Shown: one piece after another, positions 874 to 13,752 of the stretch
Position numbering within the stretch: the stretch's first letter is position 1
How the letters are laid out: every line of letters begins with the position of its first letter
The notes under the pieces: model-generated
Told to the model about the DNA's origin: nothing
Database searches by the model: none
The model's input: only the letters and a program-made list of their open reading frames with translations
UHGV virus genome: UHGV-0036730
DNA: 18,094 nucleotides
Strand: one strand, 5' to 3'
Source: a virus
Position numbers and translations under genes: made by a program

Positions 874-2903
874 TTATGCTGATTCCCGGTTTTCGTTAAC
901 TTTGACTGTGACCGTATCAAGCAGTACCGGATACGTCGCTTTTGCCCCCGTGATATCTGTCAGCGTCAGCGTATCTGCTGTAAAGCCATCATTTGTCCAC
1001 ATCACAAGGTCAAACGCNNNNNNNNNNTAAAGCCATCATTTGTCCACATCACCAGGTCAAACGCAGACTGCTCTGTATCATCAATCACCGGCACCACTTT
1101 TTCGCTGTTATTTCCCGCAAAGCGGAAAACAACTGTATGCCAGTTATGGTCAAATGCCCCAAATGTGCCCAGTTGCGCATTCGACTCCCCCTTGTGGTAC
1201 ATCAGATTCAGATTTGATGCATCCGTCTGAAGGAAGAAGGACGCCAGCATGCTGTTTGCTGTCGCGCCTGACGCCCACTGCGACACCGGCCAGTACAGAC
1301 CAAAGACAAACTGACCGTTAACCAGTTCGACACCCTCCGGGATCTTAAACCGCACGGCAATTTCACCTCCCTTACTGAGAAGATTTTTTGCCTCCTCCAC
1401 CGCAACAGTACGGAACATCTTCCAGGAGGTCAGTTTACCCGGCTGTTTTTCCAGTCGCAGCGCCTTCCTGCCACTGTCATCCGTCACAGTGCCTTTACCA
1501 CCGGACGCATTCCACTGCTGCTCTGTCCATACACCACTGCCACTGTTCGCATCATATCCGGCCACCATTCTTGTTACGGCTTCAGTATGACCGCCTGCAG
1601 AAGTACCTGCACCCTGCTGTTGCGTCGGACCCGCAGAGCCAGACTGTGCATCCCCCGTGGAGGCTGGCGTGGTCGCCAGCGGTGCAGACTGCCCGCTCAG
1701 GAACGGCAGCAAACGCCCGGCTCGCACCAGTATCTCTCCTGCCAGCCGATCTGAAACAATGCCTCTTCGCGCCCAGGAGCTGAAGTGCGTTTTACGATCG
1801 GCTGTCGTCCAGTTACCATTACTGCGTGACGCGGCACCATAGTATCCCGCCGTGATAATGTCCGGATCTTCTGACGGCTCGTTTGTCGGCACATTCGCAC
1901 CATGCTCATCCGTCATCAACGGCACAAAGTGAATATTCTGCGCCGCCTTGCCTTTATAGCCTCCGTAAACCGCCTCATACTGCACTGCATACTTCGCCTT
2001 CCAGTCGTACGTGGTGTCACCGCAAATCCACGGGACGCCGGACGTTGTCCCGCCAATACACTGGTCTGCAATATCTGCCAGGTCTGCACGGTATTTATTT
2101 ACCATGGCAAGAAAAAGTGCATTGTGCTCTGCATGTCTCCCCGAACTGACATCTTTTTCCCCCTGCATCCAGATCACCGACAACAGCACGTTTTTCGGAT
2201 TTTTCTTCAGGGCTGCACGCGTTCTGCTGACCAGGTCACGATACAACGGTTTATCCACCCCCCACAGGGAAGAGCCCGCTGTCGCACCCGACGCCTCATT
2301 AAACGCGCCCTCTGCTCCCGCAGTAAATCCCGAATCGCCACGTCCACACGGGACAAGAAGGATCCCCGCACGGGCAGGCATAAACGGCAGCAGTTTTTTG
2401 GCCACATGCAGGGCATGCCCCACACAGCCATACTGCCCTTTATTGAGGTCTGCTTTCGGGTGATTCAGATTACTCACGTCCTGCACATCATGCAGACAAT
2501 GGTCTGCAGGAATAATGTCGTTATATGCACAGGCCGCACCGCCCGGTGTCACCGTGCTGCGACGCGCCAGTTGCTTAATACGCGGGTCAGGACGATCATA
2601 CGTATCCGGCAGCGGCAGCCCCTCGCCAAAAGACATCGAGTTGGACTGCCCGGCCAGCGCAATGACAAAGTAATATTCCGGTTCGCTGGTGGTGCTGATA
2701 ACAGCGCCACCATCACCCGACGGTTGCACCACCACCGGTGTGGTGACATCACCTTCCGCCGCAATGGCCTGCATCAGGGTATAGGGCGTGATGGCCACCG
2801 GACTGCCAAATGGCTGCCACCCCTCCTTCAGTTTTTGAGTCAGTCGCTCCGCAAGGTCTGACGGCGACGCCGCCCTGACCACGTCATAGTGTTTAAATGC
2901 CAT
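874..2903 (-). CDS. nanS-p: Prophage sialate 9-O-acetylesterase NanS-p (SGNH/sialate O-acetylesterase family); reading frame interrupted by an assembly gap
   Basis: Track ORF 1002..2903: N-terminus MAFKHYDVVRAASPSDLAERLTQKLKEGWQPFGSPV… is the recalled signature of Stx-prophage NanS-p. GGAGG ribosome-binding site 5 nt upstream of the ATG at 2903. The ORF runs into the N-run at 1018..1027; if the duplicated 37-nt flank is collapsed, my manual translation continues in frame (…WTNDGF-TADTLTLTDITGAKATYPVLLDTVTVKVNENRESA) to a TAA at 874..876, so the 3' end at 874 is inferred. Confidence 0.75.
1018..1027. other. Run of 10 N (scaffold/assembly gap) flanked by a near-identical 37-nt duplication (981..1017 vs 1028..1064)
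   Basis: Direct reading: 'taaagccatcatttgtccacatcacaaggtcaaacgc' + 10 N + the same 37-mer with one mismatch (a/c at 1006 vs 1053). Confidence 0.9.
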
Positions 2904-3885: not shown

Positions 3886-4278
3886 CTAATCATTTTTTAC
3901 TTTTTTGGGCAGCCAGTCGTCCATCTCCAGCCTTACACCCAGCATCGACAGACATCCGTCAATAAATCCTTCAGCAATCTGCATCTCAATTCGTATTGCC
4001 TTTTCGCTCTTCTTTCTTGTTCTGGCAATCTGCCTTTTTGATATGCGCAGCAGATAATGAGCTACCAGCAGCGAATACTCGTCCGGTTTTTTCTTCTTCA
4101 GGCGCGTAAGGCAGTTTTCGATGATAAGGCCGTCATCATCGCTGCAGGCCGGGCGAGGTTTAGCGGTGGATGGTAAAAGGCCTTTAAATCCAGCAGCTAT
4201 CGGAGAATAGTCCACCCCGGTGTTACCACTTGCCGCCCATGCGCCCCAGCGTTCAAGCACCTGCTGAATATCACGCAT
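3886..4278 (-). CDS. Antitermination protein Q, phage 21 / QuuD-like family
   Basis: Track ORF 3886..4383 trimmed to the ATG at 4278: [37 protein letters not shown]… matches the recalled QuuD/Q21 N-terminus (MRDIQMVLERWGAWAA…). Overlaps the ninH stop by 8 nt; followed by a tR'-like terminator. Confidence 0.7.
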   Translation of the reverse strand: MRDIQQVLERWGAWAASGNTGVDYSPIAAGFKGLLPSTAKPRPACSDDDGLIIENCLTRLKKKKPDEYSLLVAHYLLRISKRQIARTRKKSEKAIRIEMQIAEGFIDGCLSMLGVRLEMDDWLPKKVKND

Positions 4279-4471
4279 CAGAGTCTTTACCCTTATCCCA
4301 TCCACGATGGACCATAAGGACACCGTTGACGACGGCGTGCCGTTTGCCTTCTTTATCGCCAATATATTTTCTGACCGTGGCACGATTACAGTTCAGTATT
4401 CGGGCCACTTCGGTCTGATTTCCATATGCCTCAACAAGCATGTCAGGAATGATTTTTACGGTGAACGTCAT
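4271..4471 (-). CDS. ninH: NinH
   Basis: [58 protein letters not shown]… is near-identical in pattern to recalled lambda NinH ([36 protein letters not shown]…). Confidence 0.8.
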
Positions 4472-9181: not shown

Positions 9182-9895
9182 ATGAACATGAAAAAGAAAC
9201 CGTTAACCCCTGAGCAACTGGAAGACGCCAAGCGTCTGAAAAGTATTTTTAACGCTAAAAAGAAAGAGTTAGGCCTGTCGCAGGAATCATTAGCCTATGA
9301 ATTAGGTGTTACCCAAAGCGCTGTTAATCAGCTAATGGCTGGCATCAACGCCATAAATGCCAGCCACGCAGCACAGCTTGCTAAGATACTGAATGTAAAG
9401 GTCGGAGATTTCAGTCCCAGCCTGGCAAAATCTATTGCAGAAATGGCGCTCGCAATTGAAGAGCCATTAACTCGTGTCCCCGCTTACGAATATCCGTTAC
9501 TCTCCTGCGTACAAGCTGGCGCATTCTCAATGGATGATATTTCGTACACCGCAAAAGATGCGATTAAATGGATCTCCACCACCACAAAAGCCAGTGACAG
9601 GTCGTTCTGGCTGGAGGTCAAGGGGCATTCAATGACCGCACCGCAGGGTGGTAAACCCAGCTTCCCTGAAGGTATGCTGATACTCGTTGACCCTGAACGG
9701 GAAATCGAGGATGGCGATTTTTGCGTGGCCCGAATGAACGGCGATGAATTTACCTTCAAACGATTCATTCGTGAGAGCGGTAAAGCGTACCTGGAGCCGC
9801 TCAACCCACGATTCGACATGATTGAGTGTAACGAAAACTGCCAGTTTGTCGGAAAGGTCATCAAATCGCAGTGGAATGATGATACTTTTGATTGA
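9182..9895 (+). CDS. cI: CI repressor, lambda CI family (HTH DNA-binding domain + S24 LexA-like autocleavage domain)
   Basis: 237 aa; collinear with recalled lambda CI along the whole length (KKKPLT.EQLEDA.RLK…LGLSQES…FSP……EYEYP…VQAG.FS…[33 protein letters not shown]……GDFC.AR..GDEFTFK…). Confidence 0.9.
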
Positions 9896-9991
9896 GCTCA
9901 CAGAGCGATATTAATAACCTTGCCGGGAGATGCTTGGGAAGCGATTTTCTGGCATTATTATCTGAGTTGCCCACAACCTATAGAGTCTTAC

Positions 9992-10153
9992 ATGAAAAAA
10001 TCATTTGCTGTATTGTTCGTTTTGTTGTCACTGGTAGCTTCGACTCAATCATTCGCTGGTCGTTGCCAACACGACAATGATACCGCTGCTGACGGCTCTC
10101 GTTGTGGTGGTCGTTCTGCTGATTCTCGTCCTGGCGGTGGTGGTATTCGCTAA
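9992..10153 (+). CDS. Small exported peptide (53 aa, predicted signal peptide, Gly/Arg-rich mature part with 2 Cys)
   Basis: ATG at 9992: MKKSFAVLFVLLSLVASTQSFA | GRCQHDNDTAADGSRCGGRSADSRPGGGGIR. Stop 10151..10153 is followed at once by a hairpin. An overlapping alternative-frame ORF (10077..10316) makes this call uncertain. Confidence 0.3.
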   Translation: MKKSFAVLFVLLSLVASTQSFAGRCQHDNDTAADGSRCGGRSADSRPGGGGIR

Positions 10154-10157
10154 AAAC

Positions 10158-10185
10158 AAGGCCGCTTTCCCGGCCTTTATTTCAA
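10158..10185 (+). terminator. Candidate rho-independent terminator
   Basis: Stem aaggccg / cggcctt with 6-nt loop (10158..10177) followed by a T-rich tract. Confidence 0.4.
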
Positions 10186-10332
10186 TACGTTCAGACAGAA
10201 TTTTTGGCCTGTTGTTAACTAGTAACCTGAAGAGACGTTTGGGTGATGTTTGGGTGATTTTAGTTGTGATTAACGAAAACTATGGTGCAACATCTTATAG
10301 TAAATTGTTAATATAACAAGGTATTGTATCAA

Positions 10333-11235
10333 ATGAGCCAAAATCTTGATTCAACACTAGAAACATACATCTCTTGGCAGTTAGAGCAATTTAAGGATAA
10401 ATTTTTCCCAAACTGTGACGTCATTGCGTACTACGGTGGCATCTTTCCATGGTCAAAAGAAGTTTACCAGCCAAAACTTGAAGCTATTGGTGAGATGGCT
10501 AACAGTCGTACCAATAAATTTCTTGTTATTATACTCAATACAAACGGTGGTTCTGTTGAGTCTGTAGAAAAAATGGTAGAAATTACAAGGCATTTCTACC
10601 AAGAGGTATATTTTATCATTCCAGACATGGCTATGTCGGCAGGTACAATATGGTGCATGTCTGGAGATAAAATTTACATGGACTATGCTTCTTCATTAGG
10701 ACCTATTGATCCTCAAGTGCAATCGTCGGACGGTAAATGGGTTCCCGCTTTGGGATACCTTGATAAAGTTGAAGAAATGATTAATAAATCCAGAGAAGGA
10801 ACCATTACCCAAGCTGAACTGATGATGCTTAGTCAGTTAGATCTGGCGCACTTGCGGAGATATGAGCAAGCCAGAGAACTATCAATAGACTTGCTTAAGA
10901 AATGGCTTGTGGAGTATAAATTTAGAGAGTGGACAGTTCATCAGGGTAACACAAAACGAGGAAAGCTAGTTACCAAGAGGGAAAAGGAAGCGAGGGCTAA
11001 AATGATCGCTACCGCTCTTAGTGACAACGGAAAGTGGCATTCTCACGGAAGAACGATAGGAATAAACACTCTTATCAATGATTTAAGGATAAAAGTAGAA
11101 GACTTTACATACGATAAAGATTTTAGCATGGCGTTAAAAAATATACATAACGTCATTAATGAATACATGTATAAAACAAATCGACAGGTTCTTGTTCTGT
11201 CTTCTTTCCCTTTTCCAGAACAAAGTGAGTCATAA
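10333..11235 (+). CDS. ClpP/crotonase-fold serine peptidase, S49 (SppA) / SDH-like family, no signal peptide
   Basis: Track ORF 10324..11235 (TTG) trimmed to the ATG at 10333. ILNTNGGSVESVEKMVEIT aligns with the ClpP INSPGGVITAGMSIYDTM region; IIPDMAMSAGTIWCMSGDKIYMD carries the A-x-S-x-G catalytic-serine motif (ClpP GQAASMGA / SppA AASGGY). The ClpP His position is IDPQ here, so a Ser-Lys (S49-like) mechanism is inferred. Lies in a locally AT-rich block. Confidence 0.6.
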   Translation: MSQNLDSTLETYISWQLEQFKDKFFPNCDVIAYYGGIFPWSKEVYQPKLEAIGEMANSRTNKFLVIILNTNGGSVESVEKMVEITRHFYQEVYFIIPDMAMSAGTIWCMSGDKIYMDYASSLGPIDPQVQSSDGKWVPALGYLDKVEEMINKSREGTITQAELMMLSQLDLAHLRRYEQARELSIDLLKKWLVEYKFREWTVHQGNTKRGKLVTKREKEARAKMIATALSDNGKWHSHGRTIGINTLINDLRIKVEDFTYDKDFSMALKNIHNVINEYMYKTNRQVLVLSSFPFPEQSES

Positions 11236-11406
11236 ATGAACAAAGACAAATCCCTGACACAACAAGTGGAAGAAATACTTAGCAAGCAAAAAGTTAGCGA
11301 GCAAGGAAAAATGATTCAATCATTAAAGAACAGGGGCTTGATCAACAAGCCTGTTTTTACTTTGGCTTATGGACCAGATATTACAACCTGCCAAATGCAC
11401 CAATAA
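11236..11406 (+). CDS. Small protein (56 aa) translationally coupled to the peptidase
   Basis: ATG at 11236 directly abuts the peptidase stop (TAA-ATG). MNKDKSLTQQVEEILSKQKVSEQGKMIQSLKNRGLINKPVFTLAYGPDITTCQMHQ, stop 11404..11406, then a strong terminator. Below the 60-aa cut-off of the ORF track. Confidence 0.4.
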   Translation: MNKDKSLTQQVEEILSKQKVSEQGKMIQSLKNRGLINKPVFTLAYGPDITTCQMHQ

Positions 11407-11437
11407 CAAAACCCGGCCTTGGTGCCGGGTTTTGTTT
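11405..11437. terminator. Bidirectional rho-independent terminator between convergent operons
   Basis: acccggc-cttggt-gccgggt hairpin (11411..11430) flanked by aaaa / tttgttt, so it is U-rich after the stem on both strands. Sits between the peptidase cassette (+) and hicAB (-). Confidence 0.6.
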
Positions 11438-11522
11438 GCCTCCTGCTCGCCCCACCATTTACCAGTGCGCCGTAAATTCCCCATTCTTCGTGGCGGTGAG
11501 GATGTCAAAGACGAAGGGAACA

Positions 11523-11867
11523 TTAAGCCCCTGTGTGATGGTTGACTTCTTTTTCCAGCGCCTTATTAACAAAGGCGTTCAGTGATAAATCTTCTTCCAT
11601 CGCCATTTCTGCTACCCGACGATGCAGTTCTGGATCAAGCCTGACGTTAAACACACCTTTAAACGGGGTATCAGGCTCCTTTCCATCCTCCACACAAGAC
11701 TGTAAATACAGCTCAACCGATGTCTTAAACTCCTGTTCCAGTTCAGCTAATGTAGAAGCCTCATAAGTTACCAGGTCTCGAATAAACGCCAGTTTTCCGT
11801 ACAGGATATTATTTTCAAAATCTGGTTCTACTGTACCTAAATACCCTTTATATTTTAGATGCTTCAT
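11523..11867 (-). CDS. hicB: HicB-family antitoxin (N-terminal HicB fold + C-terminal ribbon-helix-helix)
   Basis: 114 aa; YKGYLGTVEPDFENNILYGKL…EASTLAELEQEFKTSVELYL… then GVFNVRLDPELHRRVAEMAMEEDLSLNAFVNKALEKEV, the characteristic HicB RHH tail. ATGA overlap with the upstream hicA. Confidence 0.75.
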   Translation of the reverse strand: MKHLKYKGYLGTVEPDFENNILYGKLAFIRDLVTYEASTLAELEQEFKTSVELYLQSCVEDGKEPDTPFKGVFNVRLDPELHRRVAEMAMEEDLSLNAFVNKALEKEVNHHTGA

Positions 11868-12112
11868 AATACCCCAGCCTCTTTCAGATTCTGTTTAATC
11901 GCTTTCAGCGTTCCACCTTTAATATAACTTTCTGGATGTGGGCGATGCATTAATATGGTGTGGTTGATTTCAGCATTGAAAAACCGCACTCTTGAGCCCT
12001 GCATTTCCTTTTTGACATCTCCCAGAGAGGAAAACAAAACGACCAGCTCATCCCATTCAAACGTTTTTTTACTGTTTAAAAACTTTTCCAGTAGCTTATC
12101 TGCTTTCCCCAT
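11864..12112 (-). CDS. hicA: HicA-family toxin (mRNA interferase)
   Basis: Track ORF 11864..12118 (GTG) trimmed to the ATG at 12112. …LLEKFLNSKKTFEWDELVVLFSSLG…HTILMHRPHPESYIKGGTLKAIKQNLKEAGVL follows the HicA/YcfA pattern. Upstream of and overlapping hicB. Confidence 0.7.
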   Translation of the reverse strand: MGKADKLLEKFLNSKKTFEWDELVVLFSSLGDVKKEMQGSRVRFFNAEINHTILMHRPHPESYIKGGTLKAIKQNLKEAGVL

Positions 12113-12268
12113 ACCCACATAATCTCATCTTCGCTACATTGCAACTAATTATAGTTACAGACAGTGTTTTTGTCAAAAGCCACCAAGCCCGCTGGGTTCT
12201 CTTTGACTGTTCGCTGCTTTTCCTGGTGTTATCCGGGGGCTTTTCCCTCACGCCAAATCTCACACAGA

Positions 12269-12294
12269 GTAACCGGCCCGCGCCGGCTTTTCTT
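12269..12294 (+). terminator. Candidate rho-independent terminator in the ORF-poor leader
   Basis: Stem ccggc / gccgg (12273..12286) followed by cttttcttt. Confidence 0.3.
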
Positions 12295-12917
12295 TGACCG
12301 CACTCCGCTAACCGCCCCCTTGAAAAATAAATCACTTTAAAAATCAGTTAAGTAATATTTTTTTGACCCCAATAACCACCAACGGTATTTACACAAAAAT
12401 CACCGCAAGTTATATTTATTTCAAGCCAGAAACATCGCGCCCTTACACAGGGCTACATAAATCAGTCGTACGGCGCGACTTAACCCGCCGCAAAATGCTC
12501 TTTAACAATCTGGAGCTTTACAGCGTCAATGACCTGTTTAGACCCCTACACGTAAACGTGCTGTATCATCGGGTGCGATCCGGTCGATGAGAGAGTATCC
12601 CCGCGCGAGAGCGAGAACGGCGTGAGAACGGGCAACACTGGCAGGAAGTTGGCGCTGACCAATACAGGGAATGTTTTGGGGTGTGGTGAAGGGTTCATGG
12701 ACGGGAATATGTCGCACGTAAAGCGGCGAGGCCCGAGGGACTATTGCTGAAGATAAGTAGGCCGAATCGGGTCGAAATGGGTCTCCCACCTGCCACATCG
12801 CCAAAGCGTTTCTGAGAAAGGACGGTATTGACTGCGTGTGATGTCGGGGCTATATTTGGCGAACACCTCATAAAACGGGTGTCGGGATTGCTACCCCGCT
12901 GACAATCGAGGCGATAC

Positions 12918-12939
12918 AGACGCGCCAGCGTCTTTTTTT
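12918..12939 (+). terminator. Rho-independent terminator upstream of rha (tL-like position)
   Basis: Stem agacgc / gcgtct with gcca loop (12918..12933) followed by a T-run (12933..12939). Confidence 0.45.
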
Positions 12940-13104
12940 GTATCGACATACACGCACATCTTATCAATGGTGGGCTGTATGGGGCCGACTTCGGTCGGGC
13001 TGGTTCCCTTGATTGCCAGTTGTAGCAACCCTGTACAGTCCACCGCCAGCGAGCTTGCTACCTCCAGCGGTGGTTATCAATCACCAATCAAGGAGGCTGC
13101 CATT

Positions 13105-13752
13105 ATGGCTACTATCCCAGTCCTTTCTCAACCTGAAATCACCATTTCCAATGGTCGCGTTATCACAACGTCTATTGCTATTGCTGAATTTTTTGACAAG
13201 CGGCACGACGACGTTTTAAAAAAAATCCGATTGATGGATTGTTCTACGGAATTTAACGCCCGCAATTTTTCGGACGTTACCTACACCGACGCCAAAGGCG
13301 AACAACGCCCAATGTACCAAATCACCAAAAACGGATTCGTTTTCCTGGTGATGGGGTTCACTGGCAAAAAAGCCGCCGCTTTCAAAGAAGCCTACATTGC
13401 TGAATTCGATCGCATGGAAAAACAACTATGGGAACAGAAACAACTGGCCCTGTCTTCTCCTGCGATGAATATCAATTTTCCTTTATCGTGGTTTTCAGAG
13501 CATCACCCCTACGCCACGATGAACTATGTTGATCGCAAGGTTATCAGCCTTGATGCTTCCGTGCTCTTCGATATGCCAAGCCCAACTATGCGCATCCTCA
13601 ACGAGCTACACAGCAAAGGCTATAACGTCGATGCGGCTGTCGCCGAATTTAACGCCTTCAAGCATCTGACGGAAGAAATGCGCCGTCAATTGCTGGACAT
13701 TTCCCGCACATCGGAAAAGTCTTCCCGCTTTGGTTTCAACGTAAATCTTTAA
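13105..13752 (+). CDS. rha: Rha-family phage regulatory protein
   Basis: Track ORF 12967..13752 trimmed to the ATG at 13105, which has an AGGAGG ribosome-binding site at 13091..13096 (8-nt spacer). The N-terminus (…SNGRVITTSIAIAEFFDKRHDDVLKKIR…) fits the Rha domain as I recall it. Confidence 0.65.
   Translation: MATIPVLSQPEITISNGRVITTSIAIAEFFDKRHDDVLKKIRLMDCSTEFNARNFSDVTYTDAKGEQRPMYQITKNGFVFLVMGFTGKKAAAFKEAYIAEFDRMEKQLWEQKQLALSSPAMNINFPLSWFSEHHPYATMNYVDRKVISLDASVLFDMPSPTMRILNELHSKGYNVDAAVAEFNAFKHLTEEMRRQLLDISRTSEKSSRFGFNVNL

Follow-up and report, generated by a model that had tools for sequence, protein, structure and literature searches.

A close relative of the locus studied here, the hicAB pair of IncX4 plasmids, was described by Lin et al. 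2025, who assigned it to an overlapping subfamily that predominates on IncX4 (PMC11878559). [quoted passage not shown] For hicAB of plasmid pJIE143, a role in plasmid maintenance has been ruled out according to work cited in a review (PMC11594946). The same review reports the same catalytic histidine for the HicA proteins of E. coli, S. pneumoniae, and S. meliloti (PMC11594946).

Here, we investigated a hicAB pair in an 18,094-nucleotide stretch of the virus genome UHGV-0036730, hereafter called the window, which belongs to a lambdoid prophage with Stx-converting phages among its relatives. The minus strand of the window carries genes for antiterminator Q, NinG, a primase, a helicase, and Cro. 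The plus strand encodes a cI-like LexA-family repressor (9182–9895) and, further right, Rha, Kil, Gam, RecT, and an exonuclease. Antiterminator Q is encoded at 3886–4383 (minus strand) and, about 1 kb on, a 633-aa DUF1737/SASA/DUF6645 esterase-like gene occupies 1002–2903 (minus strand). No ORF lying between these two genes has the size of an Stx A subunit, and tRNA genes are absent from the window. In strain 2015C-3121, a near-identical prophage carries stx1a beyond Q.

The toxin gene, hicA, occupies 11864–12112 on the minus strand and encodes 82 amino acids, from an ATG at 12112 (the RefSeq start) to a TGA stop at 11864–11866. An in-frame GTG at 12118 offers an alternative start that would give an 84-aa product (ORF 11864–12118). 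The antitoxin gene, hicB, lies at 11523–11867 on the same strand and encodes 114 amino acids. The toxin gene comes first, and the hicB start codon overlaps the hicA stop in an ATGA at 11864–11867. We used the curated gathering thresholds of Pfam as cut-offs (27 for HicA_toxin and 21 for HicB), and both were exceeded: HicA matched PF07927 (HicA_toxin) with an E-value of 8.4e-10 and 39.1 bits over profile positions 1–58 of 58, and HicB matched PF05534 (HicB) with an E-value of 7.5e-20 and 71 bits. In PHROGs, both proteins matched over their full lengths, HicA to phrog_8887, “toxin” (E-value of 1e-33), and HicB to phrog_9151, “HicB-like antitoxin” (E-value of 4e-50). An NCBIfam search returned no match for HicA and only sub-threshold matches for HicB. 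Both ORFs are real, far beyond chance.

In near-identical prophages, the RefSeq PGAP annotation places HicA and HicB at the same coordinates, with the product names “type II toxin-antitoxin system HicA family toxin” and “HicB family antitoxin,” and the exact sequences of both proteins are present in NCBI under those names. The locus has the layout of a type II hicAB operon, with the toxin gene first, an overlapping antitoxin gene, its own promoter (12148–12176), and a hairpin downstream. Because the profiles, predicted folds, gene order, overlap, promoter, and database annotation agree, we identify the pair as a genuine toxin-first type II hicA/hicB toxin-antitoxin system. The original prediction of a toxin-first HicA/HicB pair with ATGA coupling at 11523–12112 therefore stands, including under the profile search that it had proposed as a check.

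An AlphaFold (AF2) model of HicA, built on 18 homologs and with a mean pLDDT of 91, shows an N-terminal helix followed by an alpha-beta-beta-beta-alpha arrangement (helix 20–29; strands 33–36, 41–46, and 51–56; helix 66–79). When the model was compared with the PDB using Foldseek, the top four matches were all HicA structures (1whz, 6g26_E/F, and 4c26), with probabilities of 0.77–1.00. According to the model, HicA has the double-stranded-RNA-binding-like alpha-beta-beta-beta-alpha fold that had been expected of it. A single-sequence search of PDB sequences gave no HicA match, and a narrow profile of 18 sequences gave non-significant HicA matches; a broader profile of 71 sequences was needed to match a PDB HicA at an E-value of 0.001. 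This 71-sequence profile aligns over HicA residues 21–74 with the Burkholderia pseudomallei and Yersinia pestis HicA structures.

The same alignment places Arg41 of HicA (window 11990–11992) at the position of the catalytic histidine, H24 in the Burkholderia protein and H28 in Yersinia HicA3 (4p78_C); H24 is replaced by Ala in the crystallized mutants 4c26 and 6g26. The canonical catalytic histidine of the Gly-x-His turn (H24 in B. pseudomallei, H28 in Y. pestis, and H23 in E. coli) is absent from the HicA described here. Position 41 is Arg in 135 of 152 clade representatives and His in 1 of the 152, and the HicA of H. influenzae likewise has Arg at this position, within the same signature as the window HicA. 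On these grounds, the histidine treated as catalytic in reviews does not appear to be a feature of the founder HicA clade. This clade includes the window pair together with its IncX4 plasmid counterpart and the founding hicA of H. influenzae. None of the papers searched discusses the Arg-for-His substitution of this clade.

The entire clade, including the H. influenzae and IncX4 proteins, reads Gly-Ser-Arg where characterized HicAs have the catalytic Gly-Ser-His. Two other histidines are widely retained, His56 (window 11945–11947) in 141 and His59 in 143 of the 152 clade representatives. His56 sits in a clade-specific insertion of two residues at the end of the next beta-strand and is expected opposite position 41. 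It may have replaced the catalytic histidine, or the toxin may act without His-dependent RNA cleavage.

HicA also carries Asp32 (window 12017–12019), a position that is Tyr in all close relatives (Y32D). Across 152 aligned family members, residue 32 is Tyr, Phe, Ala, or Gly, and Asp is unique to the window allele. The D32 allele is not a sequencing error, as it is recorded on 216 contigs, and it occurs in 445 index blocks; all of the places examined (8 of 8) were this prophage slot. Sister prophages carry the Y32 allele. The substitution might weaken the toxin; the reading frame and the other clade-invariant residues (G39, S40, R41, R43, H56, P58, and H59) are intact.

The AF2 model of HicB, built on 30 homologs and with a pLDDT of 90, has strands within residues 4–37, a helix at 40–60, a linker, and helices at 79–91 and 96–112. 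Its best fold matches in the PDB are 6g26_A/B over the full length, then 2dsy, 4p78_A, 6u0i, and 6g1c, and also 3k6q, several of them at probabilities of 0.9–1.0. In the model, the N-terminal domain (about residues 1–60) adopts the HicB-type toxin-binding fold, a beta-sheet with one long helix. Residues 72–112 match Arc-like repressor PHROGs with an E-value of 1e-4, and weaker matches of the C-terminus were to Pfam Antitox_RHH (E-value of 0.023) and a CopG structure, 9kkd (E-value of 0.05). A single-sequence search of PDB sequences with HicB gave only weak ribbon-helix-helix matches, and in the fold comparison HicB aligns over its full length with the ribbon-helix-helix HicB of 6g26. HicB is thus predicted to be the usual two-domain antitoxin, with a C-terminal ribbon-helix-helix DNA-binding domain at about residues 70–112.

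The pair has a promoter of its own at 12148–12176 (minus strand), with a −35 box TTGACA at 12171–12176, a 17-nt spacer, and a −10 box TATAAT at 12148–12153. It matches the sigma-70 consensus at 12 of 12 positions, lies 35 bases upstream of the hicA ATG, and is the one perfect sigma-70 site in the window, where 0.01 would be expected by chance. Both the IncX4 plasmid and prophages with other contexts retain this promoter. An inverted repeat, TGTAACTA-N4-TAGTTGCA, overlaps the −10 box at 12140–12159 (minus strand). Photorhabdus, Salmonella, the IncX4 plasmid, and the window all keep a palindrome of the form TGTAACTA-N4-TAGTTACA, whereas their sequences are not conserved upstream of the −35 box. 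Because it is conserved, and because such binding is the usual mode of type II antitoxins, we read this palindrome as the probable HicB operator. We also searched for cI operator-like repeats that the cI/cro region might share with the sequence to the right of hicA and found nothing convincing.

Compared with IncX4, Photorhabdus, and Salmonella, the spacing from the ribosome-binding site to the hicA ATG is about eight bases longer in the prophage lineage (12110–12130, minus strand). This 8-nt insertion creates an out-of-frame ATG at 12120, which opens a 14-codon upstream ORF, as well as the in-frame GTG at 12118, and it could change translation of the toxin.

The genes lie in a variable accessory slot next to cI. 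Homology to phage PA2 ends at 9909 and restarts at 12273, and we therefore place the slot at 9910–12272 (2.36 kb), between cI and the isrK/C4/Rha region. It contains a 53-aa membrane ORF, a gene for an SDH-type Clp-fold protease, a 56-aa ORF, and hicBA. The gene for the protease, an SDH-family Clp-fold serine protease, occupies 10324–11235 on the plus strand, and the protease cassette (10324–11406, plus strand) is convergent with hicAB (minus strand), as the original prediction had it. At 40.9%, the GC content of the slot falls below the 48.8% of the window as a whole. The AT-rich island of ~1.9 kb that had been proposed at 10186–12118 is indeed AT-rich (39.8% against 48.8% GC), but the slot extends from 9910 to 12272 and is a mosaic. 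The protease and 56-aa ORF cassette (10245–11442) stands alone beside cI in about a dozen genomes among the matches listed, and the complete slot content was present in only 5 of 5426 complete E. coli genomes. In prophages, hicAB occurs with the 56-aa ORF only, directly beside cI, or with a Panacea-domain pair. These arrangements show a mosaic of independently mobile cassettes rather than a single island, and the cI-adjacent slot is an exchange hot spot.

Further observations concern the contents of this slot. Within 9992–11406 (plus strand), the 53-aa ORF is membrane-anchored, and the 53-aa ORF, the protease, and the 56-aa ORF each form their own PHROG family of unknown function. PA2-type Stx phages hold a methyltransferase/restriction endonuclease pair at this site (phage PA2 slot, L003 2490–4909), and the prophage slot of E. 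coli JNEC-KY204 (L005 3563–4413) holds a Panacea-domain protein and a hypothetical gene beside hicAB. A megablast search of a deposited-phage collection found no record with the slot content; matches were confined to the final 72 bases of the query.

To the right of hicA, about 690 bp without a predicted protein-coding gene are followed by isrK, C4 RNA, and a Rha-family gene. The Hfq-binding RNA isrK (12863–12938, plus strand) and the C4 antisense RNA (12963–13050, plus strand) scored 61.8 and 77.4 bits in Rfam, respectively, each above its gathering score. The pair had been placed between a cI-side cassette and the early-left operon; the cI-adjacent position holds, but this right-hand neighbor is not the start of an operon. 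The two RNAs lie just upstream of, or overlap the start of, a 261-aa Rha-family ORF (12967–13752), for which some gene callers use a later start that gives 215 aa. A promoter-like site at 12828–12856 directly precedes isrK. The N-terminus of the 261-aa ORF gave a weak “Phage_ASH” match, which is probably translated C4 RNA region.

Between the protease/56-aa cassette (plus strand) and hicAB (minus strand) lies a two-way intrinsic terminator hairpin at 11405–11436, 86 nt past the hicB stop. Its perfect 13-bp arms (11405–11417 and 11424–11436) enclose a 6-nt loop, and it is flanked by an A-run and a T-run, so that a U-run follows the hairpin on either strand. The calculated dG is −21.2 kcal/mol on the plus strand and −23.7 kcal/mol on the minus strand (z-scores of −3.3 and −4.2), and no shuffled sequence was as stable. 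The hairpin was not listed by the promoter/terminator scan and was established by folding and a repeat finder. A bidirectional terminator shared by hicAB and the protease cassette, as originally suggested, is therefore plausible given its stability on both strands, but the hairpin is not specific to the pair. In prophages that have the protease cassette and lack hicAB, homology reaches 11442 and includes the hairpin. Because it travels with that cassette where hicAB is absent, the hairpin is historically part of the protease/56-aa cassette.

The promoter, hicA, and hicB together form a 672-bp cassette (11507–12178, minus strand) that is common to IncX4 plasmids. A blastn search with 11507–12178 against the IncX4 plasmid pIPCEC48_3 gave 91.3% identity over exactly that span. 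The cassette was matched by 798 plasmid records, 553 of which cover at least 80%. At the protein level, the window and IncX4 sequences are identical at 78 of 82 HicA residues (95%) and 110 of 114 HicB residues (96%). We take the experimentally tested p14EC007a pair to be the same as the IncX4 copy compared here; the link is indirect, and we draw it because the overlapping type predominates on IncX4 (PMC11878559) and the IncX4 matches are uniform. As judged from these comparisons, the cassette is horizontally mobile between plasmids and prophages. In IncI2 mcr-1 plasmids, a stretch of ~258 bp that lacks annotation shows 88% identity to a portion of the window hicB (window 11626–11886; six matches, e.g., pHNSHP45, NZ_KP347127.1). 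This fragment looks like a remnant of an overlapping-type cassette beside those plasmids’ own, different hicAB.

We consider it highly likely that the locus is an autonomous type II hicAB cassette capable of horizontal transfer, inserted in the cI-adjacent accessory slot of a lambdoid prophage. The analysis establishes gene structure, family membership, folds, promoter, palindrome conservation, and mobility; RNase activity, neutralization, autoregulation, and role are inferences. By family knowledge, free HicA would cleave cellular RNA and growth would stop, and the N-terminal domain of HicB would bind HicA and mask the active face of the toxin. The C-terminal ribbon-helix-helix domain of HicB would bind the palindrome over the −10 box, and the complex would in this way repress the very strong promoter of the pair. 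Translation of hicA and hicB would be coupled through the ATGA overlap, which would keep both proteins in step, and the two-way hairpin would end the transcript. Since hicAB is driven by a promoter of its own and points away from phage transcription, we expect it to be on in lysogens, where it would be expressed independently of the lytic program. The most likely role is that of a selfish addiction/competition module that moves between plasmids and prophages and is weakly stabilizing at best.

An abortive-infection role is possible, and hicAB could be a lysogen-expressed anti-phage module in which an infecting phage frees HicA, so that RNA is degraded and the infection is aborted. The pair has the same position as lambda rexAB, its strong promoter is independent of phage transcription, and the slot holds defense-type cargo in other phages and prophages (restriction-modification genes in PA2 and VT2phi_272 and a Panacea-domain pair in KY204). 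HicA domains have also been argued to cluster in defense islands (Gerdes 2024, PMC10865869). However, PADLOC defense models gave no match for HicA, HicB, or any other gene of the slot, and nothing in the sequence indicates a trigger for HicA release. Moreover, deletion of the other plasmid hicAB type left resistance to the lytic phages tested unchanged (PMC11878559), and no targeted phage was found for the HicAB-like pair of Adephagia (PMC11594946). We regard a dedicated anti-phage module as unlikely.

It is improbable, though consistent with some features of the locus, that the toxin is attenuated by Y32D and that HicB is the useful product, acting in anti-addiction against the IncX4 HicA or as a mere regulator. 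The odd Asp32 is nonetheless fixed in many isolates, and the 8-nt insertion before the hicA ATG may lower toxin translation. The near identity of the window and IncX4 HicB proteins makes cross-neutralization plausible. Against attenuation, the hicA frame and all other clade-invariant residues are preserved, sister prophages carry Y32, and Asp at position 32 may be harmless, as distant members tolerate Ala and Gly there. A joint reading, in which an active site unlike that of every characterized HicA goes together with a toned-down prophage toxin and an anti-addiction/defense module that interacts with IncX4, is a tentative possibility that we think more doubtful than not. The small size of both ORFs is the sole point for regarding them as chance frames or decayed, functionless remnants. 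The significant profiles, confident folds, and conserved promoter and operator refute this, as does the 57%–62% identity to Pasteurellaceae homologs of the same length and with the same overlap, and its probability is practically nil. The mobile type II cassette remains our preferred explanation.

The pair is already known, since RefSeq gives both genes their correct names and experiments on a near-identical plasmid type have been published, and as a correct but ordinary toxin-antitoxin pair it adds little. However, the 672-bp cassette moves between resistance plasmids (IncX4/IncI2) and the slot beside cI in lambdoid prophages akin to Stx-converting phages, which makes cross-talk between prophage antitoxin and plasmid toxin possible. 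The slot is documented here as a hot spot for exchangeable cargo, including restriction-modification genes, the SDH protease, the Panacea-domain pair, and hicAB.

Among known systems, the chromosomal hicAB of E. coli K-12 shares the family name and the toxin-first order, but the K-12 genes do not overlap. Furthermore, the K-12 HicB uses a helix-turn-helix domain (PMC11594946), whereas the window HicB is predicted to use a ribbon-helix-helix domain. We rejected the idea that the window pair is a copy of the K-12 locus, with which it has essentially no HicA or HicB sequence similarity. The systems of Burkholderia pseudomallei (6G26) and Yersinia pestis (HicAB3, 4P78) have the same folds of both partners and the same two-domain ribbon-helix-helix HicB, at a sequence identity of only 10%–22%. 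Unlike them, the window clade has Arg41 in place of their histidine, the two-residue insertion with His56, and an extra N-terminal helix.

The IncX4 hicAB (“HicA^O B” of the overlapping subfamily; pJIE143 and p14EC007a) has the same promoter, toxin-first order, and 4-nt overlap as the window pair. It resides on a conjugative plasmid, whereas the window pair resides in the cI-adjacent prophage slot. The window copy differs from it by the 8-nt insertion before the hicA ATG, by Y32D in HicA, and in the last few residues of HicB. For the name-giving locus of Haemophilus influenzae, we found hicA by scanning H. influenzae genomes for the gene upstream of hicB. The H. influenzae HicB (Q9LA69) and HicA are 62% and 57% identical to the window pair, respectively, in ungapped alignments. 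The H. influenzae locus is chromosomal in Pasteurellaceae, whereas the window pair is prophage-borne. Both have an 82-aa HicA, a 4-nt overlap, and the GSR...H(K/R)PHP signature, and these comparisons place the window pair in one clade with the name-giving H. influenzae locus.
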